Shown: in pieces, positions 50,184-64,000 of the stretch
How positions within the stretch are numbered: the first letter of the stretch is position 1
Layout of the letters: every line of letters begins with the position of its first letter
NCBI GenBank assembly: GCA_035762345.1
Contig: DASTPE010000079.1
Coordinates: forward strand, 408-64,407
Reading direction: 5' to 3'
DNA: 64,000 nt
Source: Burkholderiales bacterium
GTDB lineage: Bacteria > Pseudomonadota > Gammaproteobacteria > Burkholderiales > SG8-39
The notes under the pieces: model-generated
Told to the model about the DNA's origin: nothing
Seen by the model: only the letters and a program-made list of their open reading frames with translations
Database searches by the model: none
Program-made: the position numbers and the translations under genes

Positions 50184-50904
50184 GCTTCGCCAGCGCCTCG
50201 CGGTCGAGGATCGAGATCTCGCGGCGCGAAACCTCGATCACGCCTCCGGCGGCGAACTGGCGCAGCAGGCGCGACAGGGTTTCCTTCTTCACTCCGAGCC
50301 GCGCCGCGACCAGCGTCTTGCTGACCGGCAGGCGCACGACCGTACCGCCGTTGCCGTCGCTGTTACCTTCGGGAGAGTTTGCAAGCGCGCCGAGGTACGA
50401 CGCCAGGCGCTGCGCGCCGCGCTGCATCGCAGACTCGACTTCGGCAAGCAACTCGAGCGCGTGCTCGGCGAGCAGCAGCGCCACTGCGCGTCCAAAGCGC
50501 GCATCGCGGTCCATGAGAGCGAAGATCGCCGCTACCGGGATCACGACGAGCTTCGAGTCGACGAGCGCGATCGCCCCGCTGTGGCTGGGGCGCCCGAGGA
50601 GCGAGGTCGCTTCGCCGAACGTTTGCCCCGCAGGGACGAGATGGAGCACGCGCTCCTCGCCGTCCTGGCCACGCAGGCTGAGCTTCACCGCGCCATAGGC
50701 AAGTCCGAACACTCCCGGCAGCCTCGCGCCGCGCTCCACGATGATCGTGCCCCGCGGGGCGCTTATCACCCAGCACTGCTTGATGAGCGAGCCGAGTTGG
50801 GCGGGGGCTACGTCACGGAAGATGCGCAGTCGCGGCACAAGCCCCTGCACGAGCCGCGCGTCCAGAACTGCACTAGCCACCGGGCGAACTACCATGTCGT
50901 TCAT
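50155..50904 (-). CDS. Crp/Fnr-family transcriptional regulator (no Fnr-type Cys cluster)
   Basis: Trimmed to MNDMVVRP (alternative ATG at 50895). cNMP-like beta-roll, and an HTH whose recognition helix KETLSRLL carries the E--SR motif of FNR/Dnr-class proteins. Only one Cys in the protein. Confidence 0.88.
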   Translation of the reverse strand: MNDMVVRPVASAVLDARLVQGLVPRLRIFRDVAPAQLGSLIKQCWVISAPRGTIIVERGARLPGVFGLAYGAVKLSLRGQDGEERVLHLVPAGQTFGEATSLLGRPSHSGAIALVDSKLVVIPVAAIFALMDRDARFGRAVALLLAEHALELLAEVESAMQRGAQRLASYLGALANSPEGNSDGNGGTVVRLPVSKTLVAARLGVKKETLSRLLRQFAAGGVIEVSRREISILDREALAKLSSSRAHSA

Positions 50905-50931
50905 ATATTGCACCGCAGCAGCGGCGCCATG

Positions 50932-50945
50932 TTGACTTAAATCAA
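50932..50945. promoter_or_regulatory. FNR/Dnr-type box TTGACTTAAATCAA
   Basis: Read directly. The box centre is about 43 nt upstream of the regulator's second ATG (50895) and 144 nt upstream of the decahaem gene. Confidence 0.6.
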
Positions 50946-50979
50946 CGATGTCAGTGTCGCCGCTATTTCGCCGAACACT

Positions 50980-50993
50980 TTGATTTAAGTCAA
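50980..50993. promoter_or_regulatory. FNR/Dnr-type box TTGATTTAAGTCAA (exact reverse complement of the box at 50932)
   Basis: Read directly. The centre lies 48 bp from the first box and about 96 nt upstream of the decahaem ATG. Confidence 0.6.
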
Positions 50994-51082
50994 CGGGCAC
51001 ATTCGATTTCGCAAGCCTGATGGGCACCGCATCGGCATCATCAGCGAAACGCCGTATCGGTTTGTGTTTGAGGGAGGACCGA

Positions 51083-52054
51083 ATGGTTATAAGAACCGCG
51101 GCCTGCATCGCCGCTGCCCTAGTCATCGCCAGCGTGCCGGCGCATGCGCAGGCACCGGCACCGCGGAAACCGGCTCCGGAAGCCGAGGTCTGCAAGAACT
51201 GCCACGCCGACTACGTCGAAAGCTACTTCAGGACGAAGCACGGCCAGGGCGGCAATGCCTTAGGTCCCGACTGCAAGACCTGCCACCTGAATTCAGAGGC
51301 GCACGCCGCCGCGGGCGGCGGCAAAGGTGCAGGCGGCATCCTCGGGTTCAATGACAGGGCCCAGCCTGCCGAGCGCAGGGCCGGCGTCTGCCTGAGCTGC
51401 CACCAAGGCAACCGCCACCTCGCGTTCTGGGACTCAGGCCAGCACCGCAAGCAGGACGTCGCGTGCAACGACTGCCATAGTCTGCACGGCACGCCCGGGC
51501 CGGGCTCAACTATCGCGCTGAAGGCGCCGAATCCCAAGGTCAGTCCCTACGTGACGACCGAGCGGCAGCTGCAGTACGAGACTTGCACGACTTGCCATCG
51601 GCAGATCCGCTCGCAGCTCCACAAGCCGTCGCATCACCCGATCATCGAAGGCAAGCTCAAATGCACCGACTGCCATAACCCGCACGGAGCGCTGTCCAAG
51701 GCCATGGTCAACGCCGAGTCGATCCCGCAGCTATGCACGACCTGCCATGCCGAGAAGCGCGGGCCGTACGTGTGGGGCCATCCGCCGGTCGAGGAGAACT
51801 GCCTGACCTGCCACAACCCGCACGGCTCGAACCATAACCGCCTCCTTGCGGAGAAGGCGCCGAACGTTTGCCAGGACTGCCATGACGCCTCGCGCCACCC
51901 CGGGACGATCTACGACGGAAGCGGCGGCTGGAACTTCTTCCCGCCGTCTACGGCACCGAACACCCGGCTCATCTCGCGCGGCTGCATCAACTGCCACTAC
52001 CACATCCACGGCAGCAATGCTCCCGCCATGCGGGGCAAGTTCTTCCTGCGATAG
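51083..52054 (+). CDS. periplasmic decahaem c-type cytochrome, MtrA/MtoA/PioA/DmsE family
   Basis: Signal peptide MVIRTAACIAAALVIASVPAHAQ. Ten CxxCH motifs (CKNCH CKTCH CLSCH CNDCH CTTCH CTDCH CTTCH CLTCH CQDCH CINCH). About 320 aa. GAGGGAGGA lies before the ATG. Confidence 0.9.
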   Translation: MVIRTAACIAAALVIASVPAHAQAPAPRKPAPEAEVCKNCHADYVESYFRTKHGQGGNALGPDCKTCHLNSEAHAAAGGGKGAGGILGFNDRAQPAERRAGVCLSCHQGNRHLAFWDSGQHRKQDVACNDCHSLHGTPGPGSTIALKAPNPKVSPYVTTERQLQYETCTTCHRQIRSQLHKPSHHPIIEGKLKCTDCHNPHGALSKAMVNAESIPQLCTTCHAEKRGPYVWGHPPVEENCLTCHNPHGSNHNRLLAEKAPNVCQDCHDASRHPGTIYDGSGGWNFFPPSTAPNTRLISRGCINCHYHIHGSNAPAMRGKFFLR

Positions 52055-52063
52055 GAGGCGGAC

Positions 52064-54184
52064 ATGAAACCTAGACTCCTCTCGGTCCTGGTCGCAAATC
52101 TCTTCGTCGCCGCCGCACCTGCGCTCGCCCAGGACGCGATGGAAGTGTCCGGGTCGGTGAGCGCAGGAATCCGCTATATCGATAACAACGCGGCCGATCC
52201 CTCGAAGTTCACCGAGTACCGCGACCTGGAAGACGGCACCTCGGGTATTTTCGGGTTCGAGTTTCGCGGCCGCAGCCAGAACAATTATTTCAATGCCTAC
52301 GGCGAGAATCTCGGGAACGACGACCAGTACCTTGACTTGAATGGCGGCCGCTACCAGACGTTCAAGTACCGCATCTACAGCGACCACCTGCGGCACAACC
52401 TCGGCTCGGGCCCGGGCGCGCTTTCCCCCTTCTCCGGAATCGGCGGTGCAACTATCACTGCGCCTTTCCCCCTGCCCGCGGTGGGAACGTGGAACAGCTT
52501 TGACCATGCCTACAAGCGCCGTGATACCGGCGGCATGTTCGAATGGCAGAAGGCTTCGCCGTGGTATTTCCGCGTCGACGCGAACGAGATCCGGCGAGAT
52601 GGCATCAACGTTTATGCCGGGGCGAACGGGACGAGCCCGGGCAACGGCTTCACCGACCTGCCGGTGCCGATCGACTGGCTGACGCGCAACTACGCGGCCG
52701 AGGTCGGCTACTCGACCAAGCGCGGACATATGGCGGTCAACCTCAGCTACAGCACGTTCGAGAACGAGAACCAAGTGCTGCGCTGGTCGAACCGCTTTTT
52801 CGCCAACGGCCTGGACACCACGGTGCTGCCGCCGGATAACGACCTCATCCGCGTCGCGGTCAACGGCAACCTGAGACAGCTGCCGATCGATTCGACCCTC
52901 GCGGGGCGGTTCACCTACAGCAAGCTGACCAATTCCGTCCCGATGCAGCTCAACATGCTTTCCACCGGCGGCGCGTTCCCGGCCACGAATCCGAGCCAGG
53001 GTAACTTCGAGGGCGACGTCGTCAAGTACACCCTCGGGCTGGCGTTCAACTCCCGACCGACCCAGGCGCTCGACACCAAGGTCTATTACAACTGGATCAA
53101 GGAAGAGAACGACTCGACGCACATGAACTTCGTGCCGGGGACCGGTCTCACCGGCGGGACGTGCACGACTGTCGATTGCTCGAACCATCTCTTCGGGTAC
53201 GAAAAGCACCAGATCGGAGCCGAAGCGGGCTACCGCCTGACGCGTGCGAACAAGTTCACCGGCGGGCTCGAATGGACCGATATCGATCGCGAGCGCGAGG
53301 ATTTCGACCACAACGAAGAGTGGCGCGCGTTCGTCGAGTGGAAGAACAGCTCGTTCGACTGGATGACGTCGCGGATCAAGTACCAGTACATGGAGCGCAC
53401 TGGGGATTTCAACCCGAACATCCCCGTGCTTACCCAGAATCCCATGGATCTCTTCGTGCGGCGTTTCGACGTCGCGAACGTAGAGCAGAACCTGGTCAAG
53501 CTCGCCCTCGACTTCGCCCCGGCGCCGCTGTTCGACATCGGCGTCGAGGCGATCTACAAGGAGAACAAGTACAAGGACACGATCCTCGGCCGCACCGAGG
53601 ATACGCGCCACGAGCTTTACGGCAGCGTAAGCTACGGCGATCCGAAGAGGTGGCGGGTGCATCTCTTCGGTGACATCGAATACGTCAAGTTCGACTCGTT
53701 CCACCGCGTCGGCACCGGAAATCCCGATCCGGGTTCAGGATCGAACGCCACCACTTTCAACTGGGCTTCGAAGAACGAAGACGACTCCTGGCAGGTCGGC
53801 ATCGGCGCCGACTGGGCGGCGCTGCCGCGCCTGATGATCAAGGCCTCGCTCATCTACGCCGAGACCGATGGGCACACGGACTTTACGGTCGCGCCCGGCG
53901 GCCCGACGACCCCGTTCGCGCCGATCGAAGCGAGCGACGACACGACGCGGGTCTCGTTCAATCTCAAGGGGATCTATCAGCTCGACCGGCAGTGGGAGCT
54001 TACGGCCGGCTATGCCTACGAGAAATATCGCTATAGCGACATCGCCTACGACAATACGCGGTACGTGGCTCCCTTGCCGCCCGCAGGCCTTACTAACACT
54101 GCCTCGAGCATCGTCACCGGGCAGTTCTCGTTCCAGAACTACGAAGCGCACATCGCCTACCTCGTCGCGAAGTATCGCTTCTAG
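52064..54184 (+). CDS. MtrB/MtoB/PioB-family outer-membrane porin for the decahaem cytochrome
   Basis: 706 aa. Signal peptide ...AAAPALAQD. Gly/Asn/Tyr-rich amphipathic strand pattern throughout, C-terminal ...YLVAKYRF, and position directly after the decahaem gene. Confidence 0.85.
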   Translation: MKPRLLSVLVANLFVAAAPALAQDAMEVSGSVSAGIRYIDNNAADPSKFTEYRDLEDGTSGIFGFEFRGRSQNNYFNAYGENLGNDDQYLDLNGGRYQTFKYRIYSDHLRHNLGSGPGALSPFSGIGGATITAPFPLPAVGTWNSFDHAYKRRDTGGMFEWQKASPWYFRVDANEIRRDGINVYAGANGTSPGNGFTDLPVPIDWLTRNYAAEVGYSTKRGHMAVNLSYSTFENENQVLRWSNRFFANGLDTTVLPPDNDLIRVAVNGNLRQLPIDSTLAGRFTYSKLTNSVPMQLNMLSTGGAFPATNPSQGNFEGDVVKYTLGLAFNSRPTQALDTKVYYNWIKEENDSTHMNFVPGTGLTGGTCTTVDCSNHLFGYEKHQIGAEAGYRLTRANKFTGGLEWTDIDREREDFDHNEEWRAFVEWKNSSFDWMTSRIKYQYMERTGDFNPNIPVLTQNPMDLFVRRFDVANVEQNLVKLALDFAPAPLFDIGVEAIYKENKYKDTILGRTEDTRHELYGSVSYGDPKRWRVHLFGDIEYVKFDSFHRVGTGNPDPGSGSNATTFNWASKNEDDSWQVGIGADWAALPRLMIKASLIYAETDGHTDFTVAPGGPTTPFAPIEASDDTTRVSFNLKGIYQLDRQWELTAGYAYEKYRYSDIAYDNTRYVAPLPPAGLTNTASSIVTGQFSFQNYEAHIAYLVAKYRF

Positions 54185-54196
54185 TCCCCGCGTCGC

Positions 54197-54222: not shown

Positions 54223-54272
54223 CACGATGCGTTATACAATCCAATCGGCTCTACACCCCGGAGGGAGACTTC

Positions 54273-54554
54273 ATGAAAGCAAGCGTGCTTGTGATTGCCG
54301 CTGCGGCGGCGCTGGCGGCGGGTGCGGCGTATGCCCAGTCGGGCGCGGACGTGCTCAAGTCGAAGGGCTGTCTGAACTGCCACGAGGCCGACAAGAAGAA
54401 GGTCGGGCCTGCGTTCAAGGACATCGCGGCCAAGCAGAAGGGCAAGCAGGCCGAGCTGGTCGCGAAGCTAAAGGAAGGCAAGGGCCACCCGAAGATCGCC
54501 GCGTCGGACGCCGAGCTGAACGCTGCCGTGCAGGCGGTCCTCGCGACAAAATAG
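54273..54554 (+). CDS. MtoD-like class I monohaem cytochrome c (no Met in mature protein)
   Basis: Signal peptide MKASVLVIAAAAALAAGAAYAQS, a single CLNCH and a GKGHPK segment. The mature sequence contains no methionine. Confidence 0.85.
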   Translation: MKASVLVIAAAAALAAGAAYAQSGADVLKSKGCLNCHEADKKKVGPAFKDIAAKQKGKQAELVAKLKEGKGHPKIAASDAELNAAVQAVLATK

Positions 54555-54572
54555 TCTGAGAAGCGCCGCCGC

Positions 54573-55199
54573 TTGGATTCCCGGGTCGCACTCATAGCGC
54601 TCGCCGCGTCGGCGGCGCTCGTCATGCCTCAGCAGAGTGCGGCACAGGCGCGCAGCGGCAAGGAAGTCGTCGAGTCCACCTGCATTACCTGTCACGGCAG
54701 CGGCGCGCAGGGCGCGCCGAAGATCGGCGACCGCAAGGCCTGGAGCCAGCGCGCCAACCAGGGCTTGTCGAGCCTTACGCTGAGCGCGATCAAGGGGATC
54801 CGCAACATGCCGCCGCACGGCGGCAACACGGGTCTCACCGATCTCGAGCTCGCCCGCGGCGTCGCCTACATGGTGAACGCCTCGGGCGGCAAGTGGACCG
54901 AGCCTGCGAGCGCTACCGAGCTCAAGGCCGAGCGCGGCGGCGCGCAGGTGGTGAAGGCTCAGTGCTCCAAATGCCACCAGGACGGCAAGGGCGGGGCGCC
55001 GAAAATCGGCGATCGCGAAGCGTGGAGCAAGCGCCTCAACCAGGGAATCGACCGGGCGGTGAGCTCGGCGATCCACGGCCACGGCGGCATGCCGCCGCGC
55101 GGCGACAAGGCCGACCTGACCGACGGCGAAGTACGCGCCGCGATCCTCTACATGTTCAATCCGAAGACGCCGCCCAAGGCCGAGGCGAAGAAGAAGTAA
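54573..55199 (+). CDS. dihaem cytochrome c5-type protein
   Basis: Signal peptide. Two repeats of C(I/S)(T/K)CH...GAPKIGD(R)(K/E)AWSxR...MPP(H/R)G. Confidence 0.85.
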   Translation: MDSRVALIALAASAALVMPQQSAAQARSGKEVVESTCITCHGSGAQGAPKIGDRKAWSQRANQGLSSLTLSAIKGIRNMPPHGGNTGLTDLELARGVAYMVNASGGKWTEPASATELKAERGGAQVVKAQCSKCHQDGKGGAPKIGDREAWSKRLNQGIDRAVSSAIHGHGGMPPRGDKADLTDGEVRAAILYMFNPKTPPKAEAKKK

Positions 55200-55204
55200 G
55201 GCGG

Positions 55205-56341
55205 TTACTTGGCCGGCTGCGCGGCGTAGGTCGCGGACAGGCTTTCGATGATGCTGTCGCTGTAGGGCAGGCTCATCTTGTGCATCATCGAACTCTCGCG
55301 CCTGTCGTCCCGATAGGCTCTCAGTGCCATGATCAGGTAGTCCCGGTCCTGCCCTTTGATCTTGGGTACGACCATGCCCGGGATCTCGGCCTCTGCGCCA
55401 TGGCAGCGCTCGCAGCGCTCGGTGAGGTCTTTGACCAGGGTCTGGCCTTTCTCCGCAGCTTTCGATTTCTGCACCGAATAGAACGCGGCGATGTTCTGGA
55501 TGTCCTTTTCGCTCAGCCCGGTGACGTAGAGGCGCATGTTCTCCCGCTTGCGGGTCGTGCGGTAGGCCTTGATGGCGTCGACGAGGTAGCGCGCGTCCTG
55601 CCCCGCGAGGCTTGGCGTGCTGGTGTCGGTGCTTACGCCGTTCGCGCCGTGACATCCACCGCATACAGCGCTTAAAGGCTCGCCCGCCACCGGGTCGCCG
55701 AAAGCCGACACGCCGCGAGGCGTCGGCGCTTGGGAGGCGAAATAAAGCGCGAGGCTCTCCATGTCGAGCCTGGACATGCCCGGCAACAGGGCGTGCATTG
55801 GCGCCGCCTTGCGCTCCTTCTTCAGGTATTCCTGGATTGCGATGACGAGGTACTGCGGTTGCTGGCCGGCCAGGCTCGGCGTTCCGGAAATCTTGCTGTT
55901 GCCGTCGTCGCCATGGCACTTGGCGCAGGCGCTCGCCAGGGCCTTGCCCCGGTCATACGGGGAAACCTGCGTCGCGTCCTTTGCGGCGCCGGAGTCGACG
56001 GGCGGCAGGCTCGCGTAGTAAGCGGCGAGGTTGACTGCGTCCGGGTCGCTCATGTGCGCCGCGATTTCCCTCAGCGCCGCGTGCGTGCGCTTGCCTTCCT
56101 TGTAGGCCTTCAGCGCCGCCACGAGGTAGCGCTCGCGCTGAGCCGCCAGGTGCGGAATGGCCGGCGCGGTGCCTTTGCCGTCCAAGCCGTGGCATGCCTT
56201 GCATTCGCGCTCGGCGAAGGCCTTGCCCGCGGCAAGATCCACCGGGACCGGCTTCCCGACTCCCGCTTTCGTTGGCGCGGAATCCTGGTCGGTGCAGCCG
56301 AGCAGCGCGATCAATAGCAACCCCAGCTTGAGACTTTTCAT
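55205..56341 (-). CDS. tetrahaem c4-type cytochrome lipoprotein (four class I domains)
   Basis: Start at MKSLKLGLLLIALLGC (lipobox; GAGGAA 4 nt upstream). Motifs CKACH, CAKCH, CGGCH and CERCH, each followed by P(S/H)LAGQ...YL...Y..G.R. Confidence 0.85.
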   Translation of the reverse strand: MKSLKLGLLLIALLGCTDQDSAPTKAGVGKPVPVDLAAGKAFAERECKACHGLDGKGTAPAIPHLAAQRERYLVAALKAYKEGKRTHAALREIAAHMSDPDAVNLAAYYASLPPVDSGAAKDATQVSPYDRGKALASACAKCHGDDGNSKISGTPSLAGQQPQYLVIAIQEYLKKERKAAPMHALLPGMSRLDMESLALYFASQAPTPRGVSAFGDPVAGEPLSAVCGGCHGANGVSTDTSTPSLAGQDARYLVDAIKAYRTTRKRENMRLYVTGLSEKDIQNIAAFYSVQKSKAAEKGQTLVKDLTERCERCHGAEAEIPGMVVPKIKGQDRDYLIMALRAYRDDRRESSMMHKMSLPYSDSIIESLSATYAAQPAK

Positions 56342-56362
56342 GGATTCCTCGAGCACGATTGG

Positions 56363-57166
56363 TCAGCCGACGTCGGTAGCCTCGCCTTCCTGCCTCTGCA
56401 GGACCACCGATGGCGGATGGGAGAACCACATCTGGTACATCGACACCACCCACATGAAGGCGAATGACAGGCCCATCAGGGCGCCGCCGGCGATCACCAC
56501 CCAGGCGAACGGGTGGTACACCTTGGTGAAGTACCACGACCCGATGTCCATCGTGAGAGCGACGAACGGGAACGCGACGACGGTGCACTTGAACCAGACC
56601 GGCCGCACATAGGCGTGGCTGAAAATTGTTCCGAGGATGAAAAAGACAAAAGTCAGGCCGAAGAAGTGGATGTGCGAGACGCGCACGAGCGTGAAGAGGG
56701 CCGTACCGGTATCGCGCTCGATGACTTTCTGTACGTTGTCGTAGCCGTTCAGGTTCGGCAGGTGCGGATTGCTACCGTCGTGGCACGCCAGGCAGCGCCG
56801 GTCGAACGTCGTGCGGATCTCCTTTTCGTAGCGCGCGCGCTCGCCGCCTTCCTGCGCCCAGGAGACGAGCGTTGTGAGCTCCTCGCGTGGCAGCATTCCC
56901 GCCATCGATCCGCGCAGCGCCGCTTCGAGGCGCGAGCCCTTGCCGCTGCCGCTGTACGCGATCACCACGTCCTCGTAGGACAGCGTACGCGGATTGCCGT
57001 CCTTGCCGGAGTAGGTGTGGAACAAGTAAATCATGGCGAAGAGGTACGCAGTCCCGAGGATCAGCAAGGTCGCCGTATACAGCACGCGCAGGCTGTACGG
57101 CAGCTCCGAGAAATGCCGATAAAGGCGGTGCAGCGGCACGTCATTCACATTCGCGTCCTTTTTCAC
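56363..57166 (-). CDS. integral membrane protein with one CxxCH in a soluble loop (uncharacterised)
   Basis: GTG start overlapping the upstream stop (GTGA). One TM segment, then a roughly 110-aa loop containing RRCLACHDGSNPHLPNL, then three or four further TM segments. 267 aa. Confidence 0.7.
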   Translation of the reverse strand: MKKDANVNDVPLHRLYRHFSELPYSLRVLYTATLLILGTAYLFAMIYLFHTYSGKDGNPRTLSYEDVVIAYSGSGKGSRLEAALRGSMAGMLPREELTTLVSWAQEGGERARYEKEIRTTFDRRCLACHDGSNPHLPNLNGYDNVQKVIERDTGTALFTLVRVSHIHFFGLTFVFFILGTIFSHAYVRPVWFKCTVVAFPFVALTMDIGSWYFTKVYHPFAWVVIAGGALMGLSFAFMWVVSMYQMWFSHPPSVVLQRQEGEATDVG

Positions 57167-58359
57167 TTGCCGGCTTTCTTGCCCGCGGGTGCCGGCACGA
57201 TCACGTAAGTCACGGCACGGGCGGTCTGGCGCGCATAGTGGGCCGAGATATCCTTCACATCGCTCTCGCTCATTAATGCGGACATGGCGGCCATGGCCGT
57301 ACTCTTGCGCGCCCCCTTGCGGTAGTCGTGCAGCACCTGCTCGAGCCAGTCGGCGCGCTGCGCGGCGAGGCGCGGCATGAGCGGGTCGGTGCTGTTGCCG
57401 TTGGGACCGTGGCAGCGGTCGCAGCGCTCCGACCACTCAGCAAGCGTCAGCGGGCGGCGTACGTTGAGCGGCTGTGGCTGCTGGGCCGCGTAGTAGGCCG
57501 CGATGTCGTGCATCGCCTTCTCGTTGAGATCCGCCGCCGCTCCCTTCATCGATTCGTCCTTGCGCGAGCCGTCCTTGTACGCCTGGGTGGCAGCCGCCAG
57601 GTACTGCGCGTCCTGGCCGGCGAGGCTCGGTGTCGCCGGATTTCCGCTGACTCCCTGATCGCCGTGACAGGCGCCGCAGGCCGCCGCAGCCTTCTTGCCC
57701 GCTGCTGCGTCGCCGACGGCAGGGGTCTGCGCCCGAGCGGGTTTTTGTAGTGCATAGAAGAGCGCCAAGTTGCCCAGGTCGGCGTCGCTCACGCCCGCGG
57801 CCAGTGCCTTCATCATGTCGTTAGGGCGCTGGCCGCTCTTGTAGGCTGCCATCGCCGCAATAAGATACTTCGGATCGAGAGCGACCAGGCTCGGCATGCC
57901 GGGCATCGCGCTGACGCCGGCCTCTCCGTGGCAGGCTCCACAGGCCGCAGCCGCCGCCTTGCCCGCCTGCAACGGATCGGATTTGGCCGCAGCCGCTTTG
58001 CCGGGTGCCGCCGCGGGACGCGGCGGATCGAGGCTCGCGTAGTAGGCCGCCACTTTGACGAGCGCATCGTCGCTCAAGTACCGCACGATTCCGGTCATGG
58101 CGCCCTGCACGCGAGCGCCATGGCGATAGGCCCGTAGCTGGAGGTCGAGATACGCCGCGCGCTGCGCGGCGAGGTGCGGCACGCCCTTGGTTGCGCTTAC
58201 TCCGTTCGCGCCGTGACAGCGTGCGCAGGAGGCTTCCGCGATGCGCTTGCCCTCCGCGATCTCGACCGTCGTGGCATACACGGCCCGAAGCTCGTCCTCT
58301 GCAGGACTTGCGGCGAGTGCCGCAGTGCTGACCAGCAAGCCCGCCCACAGGATCTTCAT
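57163..58359 (-). CDS. tetrahaem c4-type cytochrome (four class I domains)
   Basis: C-terminal 398 aa of track ORF 57163..59466. Signal peptide MKILWAGLLVSTAALAAS. Motifs CARCH, CGACH, CGACH and CDRCH. ATGA overlap with the NrfD-like gene. Confidence 0.85.
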   Translation of the reverse strand: MKILWAGLLVSTAALAASPAEDELRAVYATTVEIAEGKRIAEASCARCHGANGVSATKGVPHLAAQRAAYLDLQLRAYRHGARVQGAMTGIVRYLSDDALVKVAAYYASLDPPRPAAAPGKAAAAKSDPLQAGKAAAAACGACHGEAGVSAMPGMPSLVALDPKYLIAAMAAYKSGQRPNDMMKALAAGVSDADLGNLALFYALQKPARAQTPAVGDAAAGKKAAAACGACHGDQGVSGNPATPSLAGQDAQYLAAATQAYKDGSRKDESMKGAAADLNEKAMHDIAAYYAAQQPQPLNVRRPLTLAEWSERCDRCHGPNGNSTDPLMPRLAAQRADWLEQVLHDYRKGARKSTAMAAMSALMSESDVKDISAHYARQTARAVTYVIVPAPAGKKAGK

Positions 58360-59531
58360 GATGCGGTCTTGTGCTCCCAAGGGGGAAGGAGCCGGGTGAT
58401 TCCCAGCAATACAACCAATGGCGCAACGACCAGCGCGAGGGCACTGATCAAGCCTTCCTTGCCGAAGATCTGCATCGGGTACTCGAGCAGCCCCTTGCCC
58501 GTCTTCGAGATCTCTTGGCCGCCGATGACGACGTTCCAGCGCATCATGAACACTGAGAGCAGCACCAGGCAGGCGCTCAGCGTGACGCCCAAGACCAGCG
58601 CTCTGCCCGCGGTGCCGCGCCAGATCATATAGGACAGCCACGCAAGCGGCACGATCGCACCGATACCGAATTGCAGCACGAAGTACGGGATCAGGAGCGG
58701 CCCGGTCACATAGGCCATGATCATCTCGATGCCTTCCCGGGCCTTGTAGACGATGTTGGCGAATTCCAGCCCCTCGAGAACGAAGGCAACGATGATGAAT
58801 GCCCACACGGTATAGGCGAGGCCCTTCACGCACGCGAGATCGATCGGGACCCTGCGCAACTTGCACGACAGCACATAGAGCACGATGAGCAGCGCCACGC
58901 CGGAGATGATGGCCGAGAACAGGAACACGAGCGGCATCAGGTCCGAAGACCACCACTCGCGCGACTTGAGGGAGCCGAACACGAAACCGACGTAGCCGTG
59001 CAGGCCGTGCGCGCCGGGGATGCCGGCGATCGCCAGCCAGAAGATCCATTTCCGGTCGACGCGCAAGGCGCCCTCCGAAACGTCGTACGAGCCGAGCGTG
59101 AGCACGCGGTAGAACGCGCCCAAAGGTCCTTTTCTCTTCTGCGCCTGCGCCACGATATAGGGGCGAAACGCGAACCACGTCTCCACGATCAGCAGCACGA
59201 TGTAAAAAGTCGCGAAGTAGCCGAAGGCCGCCATGGCCGAGGTCCAATGCGGCGTGAGCAGGTTGTTGAAGGCGCGCTCGGGATGGCCAAGATGCAAAAG
59301 CAGCGGCAGCGGCACGAATAACATGAAGCACAGCGAGGTCAGGAGCGCGAGGTGGGCAACGGGCTTCAGGCGCTCGAAACCGAACACCTGGTAGAGGCTC
59401 GACACCGTAAACGCCCCGGCGACCAGGCCGGTGATGTACGGGTAGACGACGATGGCCACCGACCATTCGATCACGGTCTCGTTCGGGTACACCCAGCCGG
59501 CGTAGGGAGCATAGTGGATGAGAGGTTCCAC
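58356..59531 (-). CDS. NrfD/PsrC/ActC-family quinone-interacting membrane subunit
   Basis: 391 aa with about 10 TM segments. N-terminus MEPLIHYAPYAGWVYPNETVIEWSVAIVVYPYITGLVAG is typical of polysulfide-reductase NrfD-type proteins. Confidence 0.88.
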   Translation of the reverse strand: MEPLIHYAPYAGWVYPNETVIEWSVAIVVYPYITGLVAGAFTVSSLYQVFGFERLKPVAHLALLTSLCFMLFVPLPLLLHLGHPERAFNNLLTPHWTSAMAAFGYFATFYIVLLIVETWFAFRPYIVAQAQKRKGPLGAFYRVLTLGSYDVSEGALRVDRKWIFWLAIAGIPGAHGLHGYVGFVFGSLKSREWWSSDLMPLVFLFSAIISGVALLIVLYVLSCKLRRVPIDLACVKGLAYTVWAFIIVAFVLEGLEFANIVYKAREGIEMIMAYVTGPLLIPYFVLQFGIGAIVPLAWLSYMIWRGTAGRALVLGVTLSACLVLLSVFMMRWNVVIGGQEISKTGKGLLEYPMQIFGKEGLISALALVVAPLVVLLGITRLLPPWEHKTAS

Positions 59532-60361
59532 TAGCTCACCTCCTTGTCGATGCCGACATAGAACACGTTCGGCCCATTGCCGGTCTCCGGCTTGAGCACG
59601 TGTACGCGGTTGTTGCGGACGAACAGGCTAATCGCGCTTTGCTTGTCGTTGAGATCACCGAAGACGCGTGCGCCGACCGGACAAGCGTCGACGCAGGCGG
59701 GCTGCAGGCCGCTGGTGATGCGGTGATAGCACCACGTGCACTTGTCGGATACGCCCTTTTCTTCGTCGAAGAAGCGCGCGCCGTAGGGACAGGCCTGCAC
59801 GCAGTACCGGCAGCCGATGCAGTATTCATGGTCGATGAGCACCACCCCGTCTTTGGCCTTGTAGGTCGCGCCGACCGGGCACACCTGCACACAGGGCGGG
59901 TGCTCGCACTGGTTGCACAGCTTGGGGACGAAGAAGGCCTTCTCGACTTTCGCGTTCTGGTAGCGGTTGGCGAACCGGTACTCGCGCTGCGAGCCGGAGG
60001 CGGCGATGTTGACCGGGTCGGCGTGGCTGTCGATGCGCGGCCTCGCTTCTCCCTCCAGGTAGACGTAGCGCTCCACCCAGGTGCGGAAATGATGCGCGGT
60101 GAGCGGCACCTTGTTCTCGACCTTGCACGCCTCGACGCAACGCAGGCAGCCGATGCATTTCGTGGCGTCGACGCCGAAAGCCCAGCGGTGCTTCGTCCAG
60201 TCGTAGTCCGCCGTCGGAAAGGATTTCGGGGGCGTAACCGATTCGGTTTTCGCGCCGACTTTGGCGAGCGATGCCGCCGTGCCCGCAGCTACGGCAGCAG
60301 CGCCGAGCTTGCGCAGAAAGTGGCGCCTGGCAAGCAATCCGCTGATTGCCTCGCGCTTCAC
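59531..60361 (-). CDS. Tat-exported 4x[4Fe-4S] ferredoxin subunit (NrfC/PsrB/ActB2-like)
   Basis: GTG start overlapping the upstream stop. Twin-arginine leader LLARRHFLRKLGAAAVAAG. Four Cys clusters (CIGCLRCVEAC, CNQCEHPPCVQVCP, CIGCRYCVQACP, CTWC...CVDACP). No molybdopterin-like domain. Confidence 0.88.
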   Translation of the reverse strand: MKREAISGLLARRHFLRKLGAAAVAAGTAASLAKVGAKTESVTPPKSFPTADYDWTKHRWAFGVDATKCIGCLRCVEACKVENKVPLTAHHFRTWVERYVYLEGEARPRIDSHADPVNIAASGSQREYRFANRYQNAKVEKAFFVPKLCNQCEHPPCVQVCPVGATYKAKDGVVLIDHEYCIGCRYCVQACPYGARFFDEEKGVSDKCTWCYHRITSGLQPACVDACPVGARVFGDLNDKQSAISLFVRNNRVHVLKPETGNGPNVFYVGIDKEVS

Positions 60362-61386
60362 GGCTTCTTCCCGCAGCCCTGCGCGGCGTAGTACGCGGCG
60401 AGGTTCGCGATGTCGGCGTCGCTCAGGCCCCTGACGACGCCGGCCATCATCGGATCCTTGCGCAGGCCGGCCCTGAACGCCTTGAGGGTGTTCGCGAGGT
60501 ACACCGCCTTCTGGGCGGCGATGTTCGGCCACCCGGGATTTGCTCCGACGCCCGTCTCGCCGTGACAAGCGGAGCAGTTCTTCGCCAGAGCCTTGCCCGC
60601 CGCGGCGTCGCCCGTCGCGCTTGCGCTCGCCGCGGGCTTGCAGCTCAAGGCAGCGTAGTAGGCGGCGAGATCCTGGATCTCCGCATCGCTCAAGGTCTTC
60701 GCCACCGGCGACATCATGACGTCGGACTGGGCGCCGGACCTGTAGGCACCGAGGATGGCGACCAGGTAGGCGGCGTTCTGGCCTGCCAGGTTGGGCCAGC
60801 TGTCGTTCGGGCTGATTCCATCGGCGCCGTGGCAGCCGGCACAGCTCTCCGCGTGCTTCCTAGCGCCCGAGGCGGCGTCGCCGCCCGCCGGCGCCACGAC
60901 GCCGGCGAGCTTCGGCGCATGCGGGTTGTGGCAGACGGCGCATTGCTGGCCCGCGCCGTGCTGGGCGAGATCGATCTGCGGCTGCGTGCGCGGCCTCTCG
61001 GCCATGCGCTCATGGCACAGAGCGCAGAGCCGCCGGGTGTCGGAAGGAACCGGCAGCTTTCCCTCCTGCGGATGCTTCTGCGCCGCGCCATGACAGACTT
61101 CGCACGCCACCGTTTTGTGGTTCGCGGCAGACCACTGGGCGTGGCGCTCGCTGTGGCAGCCCTGGCAATAGGCCGAGGTCCGGAACACCGGCTCGTGGGC
61201 CGCGATCTCGGCCACTGAGCCGGCGCGGTAGTGGCCGAACTCATAGAAGGACTCGGCAGTGAAATACCACTTCGCGACCAGGGCGGCGGCAAACCCCGCA
61301 CCCAGCAGCACGAGCAGTCGGAAGACGTGCCTAGGCAGCGCCGGCCCCCAGCCATAAAGTGAACTCCCGTCCCCCGACCGTAGCAA
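60358..61386 (-). CDS. membrane-anchored hexahaem cytochrome c (4-haem NrfB/ActA-like module + two c4-type domains)
   Basis: TTG start and an N-terminal TM segment (FRLLVLLGAGFAAALVA). Motifs CQGCH, CEVCH, CALCH and CAVCH (paired-CxxCH type), then CAGCH and CSACH in class I domains. Confidence 0.85.
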   Translation of the reverse strand: MLRSGDGSSLYGWGPALPRHVFRLLVLLGAGFAAALVAKWYFTAESFYEFGHYRAGSVAEIAAHEPVFRTSAYCQGCHSERHAQWSAANHKTVACEVCHGAAQKHPQEGKLPVPSDTRRLCALCHERMAERPRTQPQIDLAQHGAGQQCAVCHNPHAPKLAGVVAPAGGDAASGARKHAESCAGCHGADGISPNDSWPNLAGQNAAYLVAILGAYRSGAQSDVMMSPVAKTLSDAEIQDLAAYYAALSCKPAASASATGDAAAGKALAKNCSACHGETGVGANPGWPNIAAQKAVYLANTLKAFRAGLRKDPMMAGVVRGLSDADIANLAAYYAAQGCGKKP

Positions 61387-61429
61387 GCCGCTCCCGACGC
61401 CGCTTGATCTACGTCAAAGGGGAAGGACT

Positions 61430-63589
61430 TCAGCCGGCGCGCACGAGGAAGCCCCGCAGTACGAGCAGGAGCAGAATCAGCCCGATCGTTATCAGGACAA
61501 AGCCGAGGAAGGCCGAGCCGATCGTCATCGGCCGCGATGGCGCGTTCACCAGGTGCTTCTCGAGCTCGCCGGACTTCTTCAGCCGTTCGTACTCGAGCGC
61601 GTGCTCACGCCTGAACTCGTCGAGCGACACCGAGCCCGTGAACATTACGATGTCGAGCGGGAACTTGTCCGGCCGGAAGTGGTTGTTGAAGAAGTGCACC
61701 GTGAACAGGAAGACCGCGGCGAGCACCGCCTCTTCTCCGTGCACGATGGTGGCGACGTTGAATATCCATCCCGGCAGGATCGACGCCGTGGCCTCGGGGA
61801 CTGCGAGCATGAAGCCGCTGCCGCCGATGATCGCCATGCCCCAGAACACCGCCCAGTAGTCGAACTTCTCCCAGTAGGTCCAGCGGTCGAATTGCGGGCG
61901 CGGCCGCATGCCGACGAACCACTGGAACATGGCGATGATGTCCTGCAGGTCCTGCCAGTTCGGCACCAGCGAGTTTGGCCCGAACCAATCGAACGTGCGC
62001 AAGCGCGGCAGGATGCGCGCGCCCACCACATAGACCAGGTGGATGAAGAAGATCCCAAGCATGAGGGTGGCGGCGACGCGGTGCACGACCGCGGCCTCTT
62101 TCGGGCTGCCGAACATGCGCACCACAAGCTGCGCCCAGGGCATCTCGGCGAAGAACACCGCCATCCCGGTGAGGACAAGCGTCATCACGCTAATCGCGAA
62201 GATGAGGTGCGCAAGCCGCCACATCGGCGCGAAGCGCTGGAACTGCTTGCCCTGCGGGTGCAGATGCAGGCCGACGACATGCGGGCTCGTCTTTCCTTCC
62301 TTGCGATCGCGCCATTCGCGGTAGAACCAGAGCGCGGTGTGCGTCCAGAAGAAAACGAACACGCCGATGAGCAGCGCGACCATGAACTTGGTTGCGACCC
62401 ACACCTGCGGATAACGCTCGAAGTCATACGGCGTGGCGTGCGGCTGAAAGCTCACGAAGCCCGGGGTCGCGTTCTTGTGGCACTGCTGGCAGGTCGCGAG
62501 GCGATTGTTGGGATGAACGCGTGAGGCGGGATCGGCTACGCGCTGCACGTTATGCCCGCTGTGGCAGTCGGAGCACTTGGCGGTATACGCGTAGCCCAGC
62601 CGGTGCACCTGGCCGTGATAGGTGTGGATGTAGGTGCGGTAGCTCTCGACGTGGCAGTTGCCGCAGTTCTGCGTGATCGCCACTTTCGTGGACGCTGCCG
62701 CCGGCGACTGGATGTCGTGCGTGGTGTGGCAGTCGGAGCAGATCGCCGCCACCGGGTTTCCTTTTTGCAGCACTTCGACGCCATGCACGGAGTTCTTGTA
62801 GACGCCGACCTGCTTCTCGTGGCACTTGCCGCAGACCAGCGGAATGCTCAGGCGCCAGTCGGCGCGCCCGGTGCTGCCGATCGGGTAAATGTAATGCGCA
62901 TCGTGGCAGTTGTAGCAGGTCGCGTTGGTGCGCGACTGGTCGTCGCGCCGCGGCCGCGCGTGCACCGACTTGAGATAGCGGTCGATCTGCTCGACCACCA
63001 CGCCGAGGCGCTCGTAGTCCTTCCTGCGGTCCTCTTCCAGGGTCCTCCACGTGTCCTGGTGGCACTGGATGCAGCCCACGCGGATCGGGCCGGTGCGCTT
63101 GTGCGGGATCTCGGTGATGTCGGTGTGGCACTCGACGCATCGGCGCTTCGCATGCACGCTGAGCTCGAACTTCTCCTTCACCACGTGGAGCGGGCGCGGC
63201 CTGCCATCGGGTCCGGGCATGGTAAAGCCCTCGTTGCCGTGGCAGCCGAAGCAGGTCGCGTTGTCGAGCGGCATCGCCGGTGCCGCGGCGGCTTCGGGTT
63301 TCGGCTTTCCAGCGGGCTTCTGCTGCAAGTACGCGACGATGGCCTGCAGCTCTCCTGCGCTGGCGTCGACCGGCATCGGATGGCCCTTGCCGGCGCGCAG
63401 CGCGCCGATCAGCTTGGATTCGGCGCCCCGGTACTTCGCCGCGGCCTCCCGCAGCGCCGGGCCCATCTTCTTCTCGTCCAACGCGTGGCAGCCGAGGCAA
63501 CCTTTCGACTGCAGAAGCGCCTCGCCGGATTGCGCACGCGCAAGCGGCGTGAATGCAATCAACGCCGCCGCCAGGACCCAGACCCGCAT
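61430..63589 (-). CDS. decahaem c-type cytochrome fused to a C-terminal 6-TM cytochrome b-like domain (CbcL-like)
   Basis: Trimmed to MRVWVLAAALIAFTPLARAQ (GGAGG upstream). One class I domain (CLGCH) plus nine further CxxCH motifs, then six hydrophobic helices with conserved His (RLAHL, VVHRV, FIHL, IVHGEE, TVHFFNNH). 719 aa. Confidence 0.85.
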   Translation of the reverse strand: MRVWVLAAALIAFTPLARAQSGEALLQSKGCLGCHALDEKKMGPALREAAAKYRGAESKLIGALRAGKGHPMPVDASAGELQAIVAYLQQKPAGKPKPEAAAAPAMPLDNATCFGCHGNEGFTMPGPDGRPRPLHVVKEKFELSVHAKRRCVECHTDITEIPHKRTGPIRVGCIQCHQDTWRTLEEDRRKDYERLGVVVEQIDRYLKSVHARPRRDDQSRTNATCYNCHDAHYIYPIGSTGRADWRLSIPLVCGKCHEKQVGVYKNSVHGVEVLQKGNPVAAICSDCHTTHDIQSPAAASTKVAITQNCGNCHVESYRTYIHTYHGQVHRLGYAYTAKCSDCHSGHNVQRVADPASRVHPNNRLATCQQCHKNATPGFVSFQPHATPYDFERYPQVWVATKFMVALLIGVFVFFWTHTALWFYREWRDRKEGKTSPHVVGLHLHPQGKQFQRFAPMWRLAHLIFAISVMTLVLTGMAVFFAEMPWAQLVVRMFGSPKEAAVVHRVAATLMLGIFFIHLVYVVGARILPRLRTFDWFGPNSLVPNWQDLQDIIAMFQWFVGMRPRPQFDRWTYWEKFDYWAVFWGMAIIGGSGFMLAVPEATASILPGWIFNVATIVHGEEAVLAAVFLFTVHFFNNHFRPDKFPLDIVMFTGSVSLDEFRREHALEYERLKKSGELEKHLVNAPSRPMTIGSAFLGFVLITIGLILLLLVLRGFLVRAG

Positions 63590-63613
63590 ACCCCCGCCTC
63601 CCCGGTGGATTAT

Positions 63614-63627: not shown

Positions 63628-63670
63628 TAATGGACCCGGGCGCCGACCGCCAGCAAGTTCCCCACCGCCT

Positions 63671-63718: not shown

Positions 63719-64000
63719 ATGGCAGCGCTCAATCCAATCGCCGTGTGGCACGAGGAGCACGTCTACTTTAACCAGCTGCTGCACCTCCTGCAGCGCGAGG
63801 TCGACGTGTTTCACACCGGAAACCGGCCGAACTACGAGCTGATGTTCGACATCGTCTCGTACCTGCGCGAATACTCCGACCGGTTCCATCACCCGCGCGA
63901 GGACGAGGCGTTCGCGCGCTTGGCGAAGCGCTGCCCGCACATGGAGCTGCCGCTTGCGCGTCTCGCGCAGGAGCACCGCGTGATCGCGCAGTCGGGCGAG
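63719..64000 (+). CDS. hemerythrin (HHE cation-binding) domain protein, 3' end outside window
   Basis: Hand-translated open frame running to the window edge: MAALNPIAVWHEEHVYFNQLLHLLQREVDVFHTGNRPNYELMFDIVSYLREYSDRFHHPREDEAFARL...QEHRVI. H/E ligand spacing is typical of hemerythrin-like proteins. Absent from the track because it is unterminated. Confidence 0.7.
   Translation, partial: MAALNPIAVWHEEHVYFNQLLHLLQREVDVFHTGNRPNYELMFDIVSYLREYSDRFHHPREDEAFARLAKRCPHMELPLARLAQEHRVIAQSGE

Follow-up and report, generated by a model that had tools for sequence, protein, structure and literature searches.

Alternative Complex III (ACIII) is itself a quinol oxidase, porin-cytochrome conduits of the Mtr/Mto type are reversible, and c4-type His/Met domains are typical of high-potential carriers in iron oxidisers. 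Adjacent mtoA and mtoB genes without mtrC are the arrangement described for oxidisers (PMC5566968). A preprint on Ferrigenium straubiae reports that a trio of genes with the same gene order and haem architecture as A-B-C below ranks with the most strongly induced genes when Fe(II) is oxidised with nitrate as acceptor (bioRxiv 10.64898/2026.01.22.701106), a condition under which Fe(II)-derived electrons must reach Nar, which is quinol-dependent. Here we describe the anatomy, homologies and synteny of an operon, U-A-B-C-D-E-F, in a 64,000-nucleotide stretch (the window) of contig DASTPE010000079.1 from a Burkholderiales bacterium. Our preferred reading, held with moderate confidence, is that this operon encodes a quinone/cytochrome c oxidoreductase within an Mto-type locus, which during iron oxidation would pass electrons from periplasmic cytochromes into the quinone pool and serve extracellular electron uptake.

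Layout of the locus

The original prediction described a six-gene unit. An ORF check placed all six genes, A to F, on the minus strand between 55205 and 61386, but the operon begins one gene further upstream, at U (61430-63592), and is thus a seven-gene operon running on the minus strand from 63592 to 55205. The features of the locus are as follows.

50155..51195, minus strand: Crp/Fnr-family regulator (PF13545 and PF00027; best match FtrB/Fnr-like), divergent from mtoA
51020..52054, plus strand: mtoA, MtoA/MtrA-type periplasmic decahaem cytochrome, ten CxxCH (TIGR03508, 224.7 bits, cut-off 192.2)
52064..54184, plus strand: mtoB, MtoB/MtrB/PioB-type outer-membrane porin (PF11854, 261 bits; TIGR03509, 232.6 bits, cut-off 240.05)
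54294..54554, plus strand: c1, small monohaem class I cytochrome in the MtoD position, sharing 48% identity with the N-terminal domain of U
54573..55199, plus strand: c2, periplasmic dihaem class I cytochrome (PF13442, E value 2.9e-28), syntenic in relatives
55205..56341, minus strand: F, lipoprotein tetrahaem cytochrome, four c4-type domains, four CxxCH, lipobox LLGC
56363..57166, minus strand: E, 267 aa, periplasmic monohaem c domain with one CxxCH, four TM helices; PF27139 (Aq_1264_TM)
57163..58359, minus strand: D, periplasmic tetrahaem cytochrome, four c4-type class I domains, four CxxCH, Sec signal peptide
58356..59531, minus strand: C, NrfD-family integral membrane subunit, ActC-like, 391 aa (PF03916 NrfD, E value 1.6e-34)
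59531..60361, minus strand: B, Tat-exported Fe-S protein, 276 aa, twin-arginine ARRHFLRKLG, four Cys4 cubane motifs
60358..61386, minus strand: A, membrane-anchored hexahaem cytochrome, one N-terminal TM helix, six CxxCH
61430..63592, minus strand: U, MtoC/CbcL-like inner-membrane cytochrome, ten CxxCH, five hydrophobic helices
63593..63718: divergent intergenic region of 126 bp between the starts of U (63592) and the hemerythrin-domain gene (63719)
63719..64000, plus strand: 5' part of a hemerythrin-domain gene that runs off the window (PF01814, E value 7.3e-8), divergent from the operon

When the sequence was re-checked, the order of the genes, their haem-binding and cubane motifs, the lipobox and the Tat signal were all as first claimed, as were the junction overlaps GTGA (A/B), TAGTG (B/C), ATGA (C/D) and GTGA (D/E); E and F are separated by 21 nt. 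The 3' end of the operon lies tail to tail with mtoA, mtoB and the two small cytochrome genes, c2 and F being convergent with stop codons 5 bp apart. The mtoA, mtoB, small-cytochrome and MtoC/CbcL-like U genes, which set the physiological context, did not figure in the original prediction. The true start of mtoA is probably near 51083, and the coordinates of the Crp/Fnr regulator are those of its longest ORF, the true start probably being internal. No mtrC-type extracellular cytochrome was found in the window. The 126-bp intergenic region is presumed to hold the promoter of the operon; a scan of 63593-63718 for the sigma-70 consensus found no site. The hemerythrin-domain product, a candidate O2/NO/iron sensor, is likewise encoded upstream of U in one related locus (L019).

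Subunits of the operon

The first four haems of A lie in a multihaem segment and the last two in class I domains that make up a c4-type dihaem unit. Four extra histidines are invariant and match the four haems of the multihaem segment (bis-His). Each of the six motifs is a plain CxxCH whose haem has an invariant distal His or Met, and there is no catalytic-type haem site; comparison of A with the active sites of NrfA, NirS and NirK revealed nothing beyond generic multihaem packing. The C-terminal half of A matches the cytochrome c4 6q2u_A (E value 5.8e-23), the c4-type domains match the Acidithiobacillus ferrooxidans c4 (1h1o; E value 1.2e-17), and the N-terminal part has a weak match to ActA (8k9e_A; E value 0.005). 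The start of A is uncertain: it is either the TTG at 61386 or a CTG at 61338 that takes the place of the canonical ATG of relatives.

B is of the NrfC/PsrB/DsrO type, with a match to PF13247. The prediction that it comprises the ferredoxin part only, with no molybdopterin-like domain, held, its alignment to ActB being confined to the C-terminal Fe-S part (residues 680-828 of 949). Among NCBIfam models B scored 217.7 bits to TtrB and 203.4 bits to DsrO (cut-off 200), and it matched PsrB 2vpw_B with an E value of 3.8e-44.

C would carry the putative quinone site and proton path. When its family profile was searched against the PDB, only ActC chains were matched (E values 1e-18 to 2e-15), and an AF2 model of C (pTM 0.78) gave its best fold match to ActC (TMq 0.67-0.76), followed by ActF (about 0.55) and PsrC (0.39). 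Identity between C and ActC is only about 15%. In the alignment His139 and Ser164 of ActC correspond to His80 and Ser98 of C, so that the quinone-pocket TMH2 histidine and the family-wide serine are conserved, but Asp169 and Asp253, two of the three quinone-site residues of ActC, are not. C scored 33 bits against the DsrP model (cut-off 350), and both C and B fell far below the NrfD and NrfC cut-offs; C matched no named family at cut-off, and none of 35 subfamily members approached one. In the source databases homologues of C are annotated as 'polysulfide reductase'. Among the window ORFs scanned C was the sole match to PF03916, no second NrfD-like gene (ActF) was found, and no molybdopterin-type family was matched, in agreement with the original prediction. 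Since C is ActC-like by profile and fold, the pseudo-molybdopterin domain and ActF are absent and no named family is reached at cut-off, it is fair to call the module a 'stripped-down ACIII-like' one that connects quinone and cytochrome c.

F is a paralogue of D, and each domain of D has its best partner in the domain of the same number in F (33-45% identity). Relatives of D have four CxxCH and N-termini resembling Sec signal peptides, and the lipobox is present in 15 of 15 homologues of F. The ten class I domains of A, D and F align as one c4-type family with an axial Met at the aligned position in nine of the ten, the first domain of F having Leu; they would be of high-potential type and may be the points of electron entry and exit. 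Among NCBIfam models PdsA ranks first for D, for F and for the C-terminal half of A, at 83-118 bits against a cut-off of 330. E, likely an accessory subunit, had no relative in the PDB by sequence or by fold.

U carries a signal peptide, a single class I haem domain and nine more CxxCH, and its C-terminal part is a TM domain of the cytochrome b type. The protein gave weak profile matches to Ni_hydr_CYTB and FdnI. This decahaem-cytochrome b fusion agrees with the published description of CbcL/MtrH/MtoC (PMC6295460).

Conservation and gene order in related genomes

The close relatives found were all uncultured MAGs. A-B-C and D-E-F occur together in 12 of the 12 related MAG loci with enough flank (protein identity 57-97%), and the cluster is therefore not a chance arrangement. 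U is kept beside the cluster in nine related loci, and a copy of c1 sits between U and A in most relatives. The link to Mto is not obligatory, since in L001, L005, L007 and L008 the cluster has no mtoAB beside it. The order of the blocks varies (U-D-E-F-A-B-C in L013, A-B-C-U-D-E-F in L016, opposite strands in L009), D-E-F shifting as a block independently of A-B-C, and D and F therefore need not be subunits.

The hexahaem/Fe-S/NrfD trio A-B-C is a conserved unit across Burkholderiales MAGs and Gallionellaceae; in Gallionellaceae iron oxidisers it stands alone or with other partners. A homologue in a Ca. Ferrigenium MAG is about 55% identical to C, and the 4+2 haem architecture of A also occurs in Gallionella. 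None of the Gallionellaceae-type operons seen has D or F, while E comes directly after the trio, again with neither D nor F, in Gallionella sp. (L020) and in a metagenome locus (L023). In L002 the trio stands alone. It also occurs within a metal-resistance island, or neighbours genes for FAD oxidases, PSCyt1 or NnrS (the last in L021 and L022), surroundings that fit a more general quinone-coupling role. The core trio is widespread and probably makes up an uncharacterised membrane complex of three proteins, a distant relative of ACIII. The composition had been called unusual, but the trio is not rare, with thousands of metagenomic homologues and a same-architecture trio in a 2026 preprint. The notion of ten c4 domains decorating the module stands for the two fused to A, which are conserved, but not for D and F, which sister Gallionellaceae operons lack and which move with E in a block of their own. 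The NrfD/Fe-S pair did not fall squarely inside a characterised clade having the same accessory cytochromes, nor were the c4-like genes found to be transcribed independently and to serve an unrelated oxidase.

Proposed electron path and described systems

A, B and C would form one complex, a minimal relative of ACIII and DsrJOP, through which the quinone pool and periplasmic c-type cytochromes exchange electrons, C reacting with quinone at a site on its periplasmic side. In the direction we infer, electrons from extracellular Fe(II) would pass through MtoA in MtoB to c1 and c2, then by way of the c4 arrays F (lipid-anchored) and D (soluble), which may be lineage-specific tetrahaem relays, to A, and finally through the Fe-S chain of B to quinone at C, proton flow through C paying for the uphill step. 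U could provide a parallel quinone-active route, and the quinol produced would supply quinol-dependent reductases such as Nar, as well as reverse electron transport.

The direction of electron flow is not readable from sequence, and it is possible, though we doubt it, that the trio works forward, oxidising quinol and reducing the c4 domains, with D and F delivering electrons to oxidases of the cbb3/aa3 types, to denitrification enzymes that depend on cytochrome c, or via MtoAB to extracellular acceptors, and the whole substituting for or supplementing bc1. The nearest structural relative, ACIII, is a quinol:cytochrome c oxidoreductase (PMC8076601), cbb3 oxidases classically receive electrons from c4 cytochromes (matches included 6q2u and related entries), and Mtr/Mto conduits and CbcL/MtoC occur in reducers and oxidisers alike. 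In Aeromonas the NrfBCD-like NetBCD with the dihaem PdsA feeds MtrCAB outward; however, the PdsA scores of D, F and A lie far under cut-off. Also against forward flow are the lack of an mtrC-type gene in the window and the fact that His/Met domains of high potential are poor Fe(III) donors. Furthermore, Fe(II) already keeps the cytochrome c pool of a lithotrophic Fe(II) oxidiser reduced, so that induction specific to nitrate-reducing growth is harder to explain.

It is unlikely that D, E and F make up a separate periplasmic/membrane module, of oxidase donors or a partner of U, co-located with but outside the A-B-C complex. The block rearrangements, the Gallionellaceae-type operons without D and F and the solitary trio of L002 favour such a module, but the C/D and D/E overlaps imply co-translation, the two blocks are co-located in every locus with enough flank, and E accompanies the trio in L020 and L023.

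We give very little weight to the idea, raised in the Ferrigenium preprint, that the trio itself acts as the terminal reductase of nitrite or another nitrogen oxide, with quinol as electron source: induction specific to denitrifying growth, a ProFunc suggestion (bioRxiv 10.64898/2026.01.22.701106) and the nearby NnrS genes speak for it, but A offers neither a catalytic-type haem site nor active-site similarity to NrfA, NirS or NirK, and the preprint's authors call it 'highly speculative'. Least probable of all is a DsrJOP-, Ttr- or Psr-like sulfur module, as the DsrO and TtrB scores of B and the annotation of C homologues might suggest, given the DsrP score of C, the lack of dsrMK genes and of a molybdopterin catalytic subunit in the operon or window, and the distance of all 35 subfamily members from any named family.

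Among described systems, ACIII (ActABCDEF; 6BTM, 6F0K, 6LOD, 8K9E) shares with the window module an ActC-type subunit with the quinone-pocket TMH2 His and conserved Ser, an N-terminal TM anchor on the multihaem subunit, a periplasmic Fe-S chain and, presumably, electron entry or exit via class I cytochrome domains. It differs in having a pseudo-molybdopterin B1 domain, ActF, and ActD and ActE, neither detectable here; in its five haems, against four bis-His and two c4 haems in A; in the two quinone-site aspartates; and in ActB2, from which B stands further than from PsrB, TtrB and DsrO. DsrJOP (of DsrMKJOP) likewise combines a periplasmic membrane-anchored cytochrome, a Tat Fe-S protein and an NrfD-like subunit, DsrP shares major group (C) with ActC in the Calisto-Pereira dendrogram, and B marginally reaches the DsrO cut-off; however, DsrM and DsrK are both lacking here, C gives no match to DsrP, and DsrJ is trihaem whereas A is hexahaem with c4 domains. 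Aeromonas hydrophila NetBCD with PdsA and E. coli NrfBCD also join a cytochrome to NrfC-like and NrfD-like subunits without a molybdoenzyme, and NetBCD works with the c4-like shuttle PdsA serving an Mtr porin-cytochrome conduit, but A matches neither NetB nor NrfB, C belongs to the ActC/DsrP rather than the NrfD group, and NetBCD sends electrons outward. With the Mto pathway of Sideroxydans, Gallionella and Dechloromonas (MtoA, MtoB, MtoD, MtoC/CymA) the locus shares decahaem MtoA, porin MtoB, a small monohaem cytochrome and an MtoC/CbcL-like inner-membrane cytochrome, whereas mto clusters in published descriptions have no NrfCD-type module or c4 arrays. The 'novel membrane-bound redox complex' of F. 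straubiae (bioRxiv 10.64898/2026.01.22.701106, section 6.5.5), compared by its published description, agrees in gene order, in its haems (four bis-His, two His/Met), in having four [4Fe-4S] clusters and in a membrane subunit that resembles those of ACIII and Psr. It is reported as three genes only, whereas in the window genes for an MtoC-like protein, for two tetrahaem c4 cytochromes and for a PF27139 protein belong to the operon of the trio, beside mtoAB.

Gene cluster and its setting in an Mto locus

The six minus-strand genes at 55205-61386 on which the original prediction was built were present exactly as described, and all of their start/stop overlaps (GTGA, TAGTG, ATGA and GTGA) were found, with E and F separated by 21 nt. 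The unit is larger than those six genes: a further gene, U, lies 43 nt upstream of A, and because U is divergent from a hemerythrin-domain gene that starts at 63719, the operon is U-A-B-C-D-E-F. The reading of the interval as a stripped-down ACIII-like quinone module was largely right, but it was incomplete in extent and context, and it went too far in treating the c4 arrays as an inherent part of the complex.

Genes of the operon and its divergent neighbor (window coordinates)
61430-63592, minus: U, MtoC/CbcL-like, with a signal peptide, a single class I domain, nine additional CxxCH and a five-helix domain at the C-terminus
60358-61386, minus: A, hexahaem cytochrome with one N-terminal TM helix and six CxxCH
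59531-60361, minus: B, Fe-S protein of 276 aa with a twin-arginine motif and four Cys4 cubane motifs
58356-59531, minus: C, NrfD-like membrane subunit of 391 aa (Pfam NrfD, PF03916, E=1.6e-34)
57163-58359, minus: D, c4-type cytochrome with a Sec signal peptide and four CxxCH
56363-57166, minus: E, PF27139 (Aq_1264_TM) protein with four TM helices and one CxxCH in a periplasmic stretch
55205-56341, minus: F, c4-type cytochrome with a lipobox (LLGC) and four CxxCH
63719-64000, plus: hemerythrin-domain gene, divergent from the operon

The A-B-C genes are translationally coupled to the c4 arrays and to the membrane monohaem protein. The hemerythrin-domain gene, which is likewise divergent from the operon in a close relative (L019), could be an O2-, NO- or iron-sensing partner of the locus. 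At the other end, the operon converges on a plus-strand unit encoding a decahaem cytochrome, a porin, and monohaem and dihaem cytochromes; the stop codons of F and of the dihaem gene are 5 bp apart (55199-55205), with no terminator-like hairpin between them. Scans for consensus promoters and terminators yielded nothing informative. A Crp/Fnr regulator gene is divergent from, and directly upstream of, the decahaem/porin unit, and the remainder of the window, which derives from a Burkholderiales MAG, consists of ordinary chromosomal housekeeping genes. The homologs of A begin with MPKH or MHKH at an ATG in 13 of 13 cases, and the corresponding codon in the window (61336-61338, minus) is CTG (LPRH), so that A either starts at an upstream TTG (61386), uses a non-canonical CTG, or carries a MAG assembly or consensus error.

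The decahaem protein belongs to the DmsE/MtrA family (TIGR03508, 224.7 bits against a cut-off of 192.2), and the porin is of the MtrB/PioB type (PF11854, 261 bits; TIGR03509, 232.6 bits, just under the cut-off of 240.05). A decahaem MtrA/MtoA together with an MtrB/PioB porin constitutes an Mto/Mtr conduit, and with no mtrC-type gene in the window it is of the oxidizer type. A-B-C, the c4 arrays and E are embedded in an oxidizer-type Mto locus. U, with ten CxxCH and five TM helices overall, has a C-terminal domain with weak matches to cytochrome b PF01292 and to FdnI (TIGR01583). Its architecture agrees with the published description of CbcL, MtrH and MtoC, from which the likeness is drawn, in which a periplasmic multihaem c domain is joined to a cytochrome b membrane domain of the HydC/FdnI type (PMC6295460). 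In most relatives a 96-aa monohaem cytochrome gene lies between U and A (e.g. L001 7782-8072); the window (61387-61429) and L019 lack it there, and the sole copy is on the opposite strand at 54294-54554.

Subunits of the cluster

A phmmer search of the PDB with C found no match, and a profile built from 35 diverse members of its subfamily matched only ACIII subunit C chains there (E=1.1e-18 to 2.4e-15), with ActF and PsrC unmatched. Foldseek with the AF2 model of C (pTM 0.78) ranked four ActC chains at the top (TMq 0.67-0.76); ActF followed at about 0.55, and PsrC reached 0.39. By these profile, HMM and fold comparisons C is an ActC-type NrfD-like subunit, although at an identity of only about 15% it is a relative of ActC and not an ortholog. 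The ActC quinone site includes His139, Asp169 and Asp253, with a family-wide Ser164 (PMC8076601). His139 aligns with His80 of C and Ser164 with Ser98, both conserved; the position of Asp169 is taken by Phe and that of Asp253 by Val or Ile, so that neither aspartate is conserved. C and the other 34 subfamily members fell far under every NCBIfam equivalog cut-off (NrfD, DsrP, HybB, QrcD, TtrC and HmcC); C scored 32.5 bits against NrfD TIGR03148 (cut-off 347.6) and 33.3 bits against DsrP (cut-off 350). When all 1.84 billion cluster representatives were scanned with phmmer, only 1475 relatives emerged at E<=0.001, and the clade is therefore distinct. Some other ActC-like NrfD subfamily members read as fusions (P0243, P0322, P0380 and P0382): by eye, two are extended at the C-terminus by about 400 residues resembling NHL/beta-propeller repeats, and the other two are NrfD-NrfC fusions in which a Tat motif precedes a four-cubane Fe-S domain.

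B scored 217.7 bits against TtrB, above its score of 203.4 bits against DsrO, which only marginally exceeds the DsrO cut-off of 200. With that marginal score and no Dsr context, the DsrO name is likely an over-annotation. NrfC is not a suitable name either (TIGR03149, 157.1 bits against a cut-off of 377.6).

The ten class I domains predicted originally were parsed and aligned, two in A, four in D and four in F. They align as one c4-type family, nine of them sharing an axial Met in the same alignment column, and PF00034 and PF13442 were found in the C-terminal half of A, in D and in F. The C-terminal half of A matched solved c4 structures (6q2u_A, E=5.8e-23; 1etp; Acidithiobacillus c4 1h1o, E=1.2e-17). 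Judged from sequence, the tandem domains with their CxxCH and predicted axial Met are those of cytochrome c4. Each domain of D pairs best with the domain at the same position in F, indicating that the two are whole-gene paralogs, and the lipobox of F is kept in 15 of 15 homologs. PdsA membership of D and F was ruled out by score (NF049874, 118 and 115 bits, with A at 83, against a cut-off of 330). In addition to the histidines of the CxxCH motifs, four His are invariant in A, a number sufficient for four bis-His haems. An N-terminal profile of A gave a weak match to ActA (8k9e_A, E=0.005) covering the anchor and first haem only, and A had no match to NetB or NrfB. A NapC/NirT (CymA-like) identity for its tetrahaem part was set aside, as faint precomputed matches occurred in relatives and none in the scan of the window proteins.

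E had no sequence or fold match to PDB chains, including those of ACIII, the fold test being weak because the AF2 model was poor (pLDDT 60.6). Its profile matches in the PDB were chance ones (S100, and a haem-motif stretch of hydrazine synthase), and a Pfam S_100 match (24 bits, at the end of TM1) was likewise spurious. Some NCBI records call E homologs 'protein S100', a propagating misannotation. A literature search on Aq_1264 and PF27139 found nothing, and this locus provides a first functional context for the family.

The locus encodes an ActC-like subunit that keeps two quinone-pocket residues, together with an Fe-S protein exported by the Tat system and a periplasmic cytochrome anchored in the membrane; we infer that these three act as a quinone/cytochrome c oxidoreductase.

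Conservation of the trio and a possible electron route

About 8000 homologs of C were scored, many of them at least 85% identical, and the cluster recurs in 16 loci from MAGs of uncultured Burkholderiales and Betaproteobacteria. All matches from a scan of a genome collection with E were uncultured MAGs, and the search thus revealed no cultured organism carrying all seven genes. The mtoAB genes adjoin the cluster in L011, L012, L014 and L019, L013 and L016 have more divergent MtoA/MtoB-like genes in the vicinity, and mtoAB is not present beside it in L001, L005, L007 and L008. In L008 (9552-12121, compared with 50155-55199 in the window) the dihaem and monohaem cytochrome genes, DUF2237 and Crp are kept, with mtoA and mtoB missing between the monohaem gene and DUF2237; this synteny indicates that mtoAB is a presence/absence polymorphism at the site.

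A serious rival explanation is that D-E-F is a module separate from A-B-C. The two blocks occur together in each of the 12 loci whose flanks are long enough, and their arrangement varies, being U-D-E-F-A-B-C in L013, A-B-C-U-D-E-F in L016 and on opposite strands in L009. In L002 the trio stands alone (8185-11170), with a C 88% identical to that of the window, in a mercury/copper resistance island. That island encodes MerR, MerT, a P-type ATPase and a mercuric reductase-like protein, and an 83-aa PF27139 fragment lies nearby (2712-2963). The sister clade of C comprises Gallionellaceae and Ca. Ferrigenium (C identity about 55%, range 52-56%), and its operons continue after A-B-C with a PF27139 protein and an FAD oxidase (L020, L023), with small monohaem or PSCyt1 genes (L021, L024) or with NnrS (L022). 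In Gallionella the A homolog has the same 4+2 haem architecture and the E homolog retains its CxxCH. From this synteny, the conserved functional unit is the A-B-C trio, E is its recurrent fourth partner, and D and F are additions specific to the uncultured betaproteobacterial lineage; with D and F absent from the sister-clade operons and D-E-F moving as a separate block, their c4 arrays are not intrinsic to the complex as originally supposed.

The FAD_binding_4/FAD-oxidase_C gene that follows the trio and the PF27139 gene lies at 9654-11057 in Gallionella sp. L020 and at 11261-12712 in metagenome locus L023. A distant member of the C subfamily, P0245 (867 aa), has an NrfD domain plus about 470 residues that by eye resemble an FAD-linked oxidase. 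These cases hint at a cytoplasmic flavoenzyme partner of the trio in some lineages. NnrS genes lie near the trio in Nitrosomonadales-type loci (L022 10963-12141; L021 374-1567). NnrS proteins are haem-copper membrane proteins linked to NO stress, and their presence fits a connection with denitrifying conditions.

For the passage of Fe(II)-derived electrons into the quinone pool of neutrophilic and above all nitrate-reducing iron oxidizers, the candidates so far are reverse bc1, ACIII, MtoC/CymA and SHP complexes. Here a compact, conserved and putatively quinone-active module lies directly beside mtoAB and an MtoC-like gene, and its position in the Mto locus makes the trio a concrete candidate for connecting cytochrome c with the quinone pool during iron oxidation, with A, B, C and E as the short list of proteins. 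In the favored, inward route, electrons would pass from Fe(II) through MtoA, the monohaem and dihaem cytochromes, F/D, A and B to quinone at C, powered by proton flow through C. Forward flow through the trio, as in ACIII to which C is related, is a serious rival. The inward direction is favored because MtoAB without MtrC and His/Met c4 domains fit electron uptake, because the cytochrome c pool of a lithotroph is already reduced by Fe(II), and because Nar depends on quinol during nitrate-reducing growth, a need that would explain the induction seen in Ferrigenium. We tentatively speculate that the trio and the PF27139 protein may be a pmf-driven cytochrome c:quinone reductase (a 'reverse mini-ACIII'), a simpler ACIII relative without the pseudo-molybdopterin and ActF modules, which would supply the missing Fe(II)-to-quinone-pool step in neutrophilic and nitrate-reducing iron oxidizers and would here be wired to MtoAB through eight-haem c4 relays that include a lipid-anchored one.

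Comparison with known systems

The cluster differs from ACIII in several subunits. ActB has a large molybdopterin-like B1 fused to an Fe-S B2, whereas B has the Fe-S part only, aligns solely to residues 680-828 of the 949 of ActB, and resembles PsrB, TtrB and DsrO more closely than it does ActB. ACIII also has a second NrfD-like subunit, ActF, which this cluster lacks. As originally predicted, neither a pseudo-molybdopterin domain nor an ActF gene was present: no molybdopterin-type family was matched among the window ORFs scanned, and no second PF03916 product was found among them or in the related loci. ActA is a pentahaem protein with an N-terminal TM anchor, whereas A combines its anchor with four bis-His and two c4 haems. 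No counterpart was found for ActD or ActE (a membrane subunit and a monohaem lipoprotein), and E matches no ACIII chain. With respect to DsrMKJOP, no DsrMK-like partner genes occur in the operon or its neighbors, and with respect to NrfBCD/NetBCD and PdsA, no protein here qualified as NrfD, NrfC, NrfB/NetB or PdsA. The trio is therefore best described, at the level of its predicted proteins, as an ACIII/DsrJOP-type module without the pseudo-molybdopterin domain and ActF. An NrfD/ActC-type subunit that occurs without those two modules bears on the assembly of ACIII.

Three iron-oxidizer papers make no mention of an NrfD-type or Fe-S module in the context of iron oxidation: 'NrfD', 'polysulfide' and '4Fe-4S' are absent from the text of PMC5566968, 'NrfD', 'polysulfide' and 'Psr' from PMC10734462, and 'NrfD' from PMC8805035. 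A 2026 preprint on Ferrigenium straubiae describes three adjacent genes for a 'novel membrane-bound redox complex' (bioRxiv 10.64898/2026.01.22.701106, section 6.5.5), encoding a hexahaem cytochrome (four bis-His and two His/Met), a four-[4Fe-4S] protein and an ACIII/Psr-like membrane subunit, which were among the genes most strongly up-regulated in nitrate-reducing Fe(II) oxidation. Its authors propose proton translocation by the complex, and grade nitrite reduction by it as 'highly speculative' (10.64898/2026.01.22.701106). Compared with that published description, A-B-C has an identical gene order and architecture. The trio is a predicted NrfCD/ACIII-type quinone module that is widespread and whose core has recently been flagged by others.
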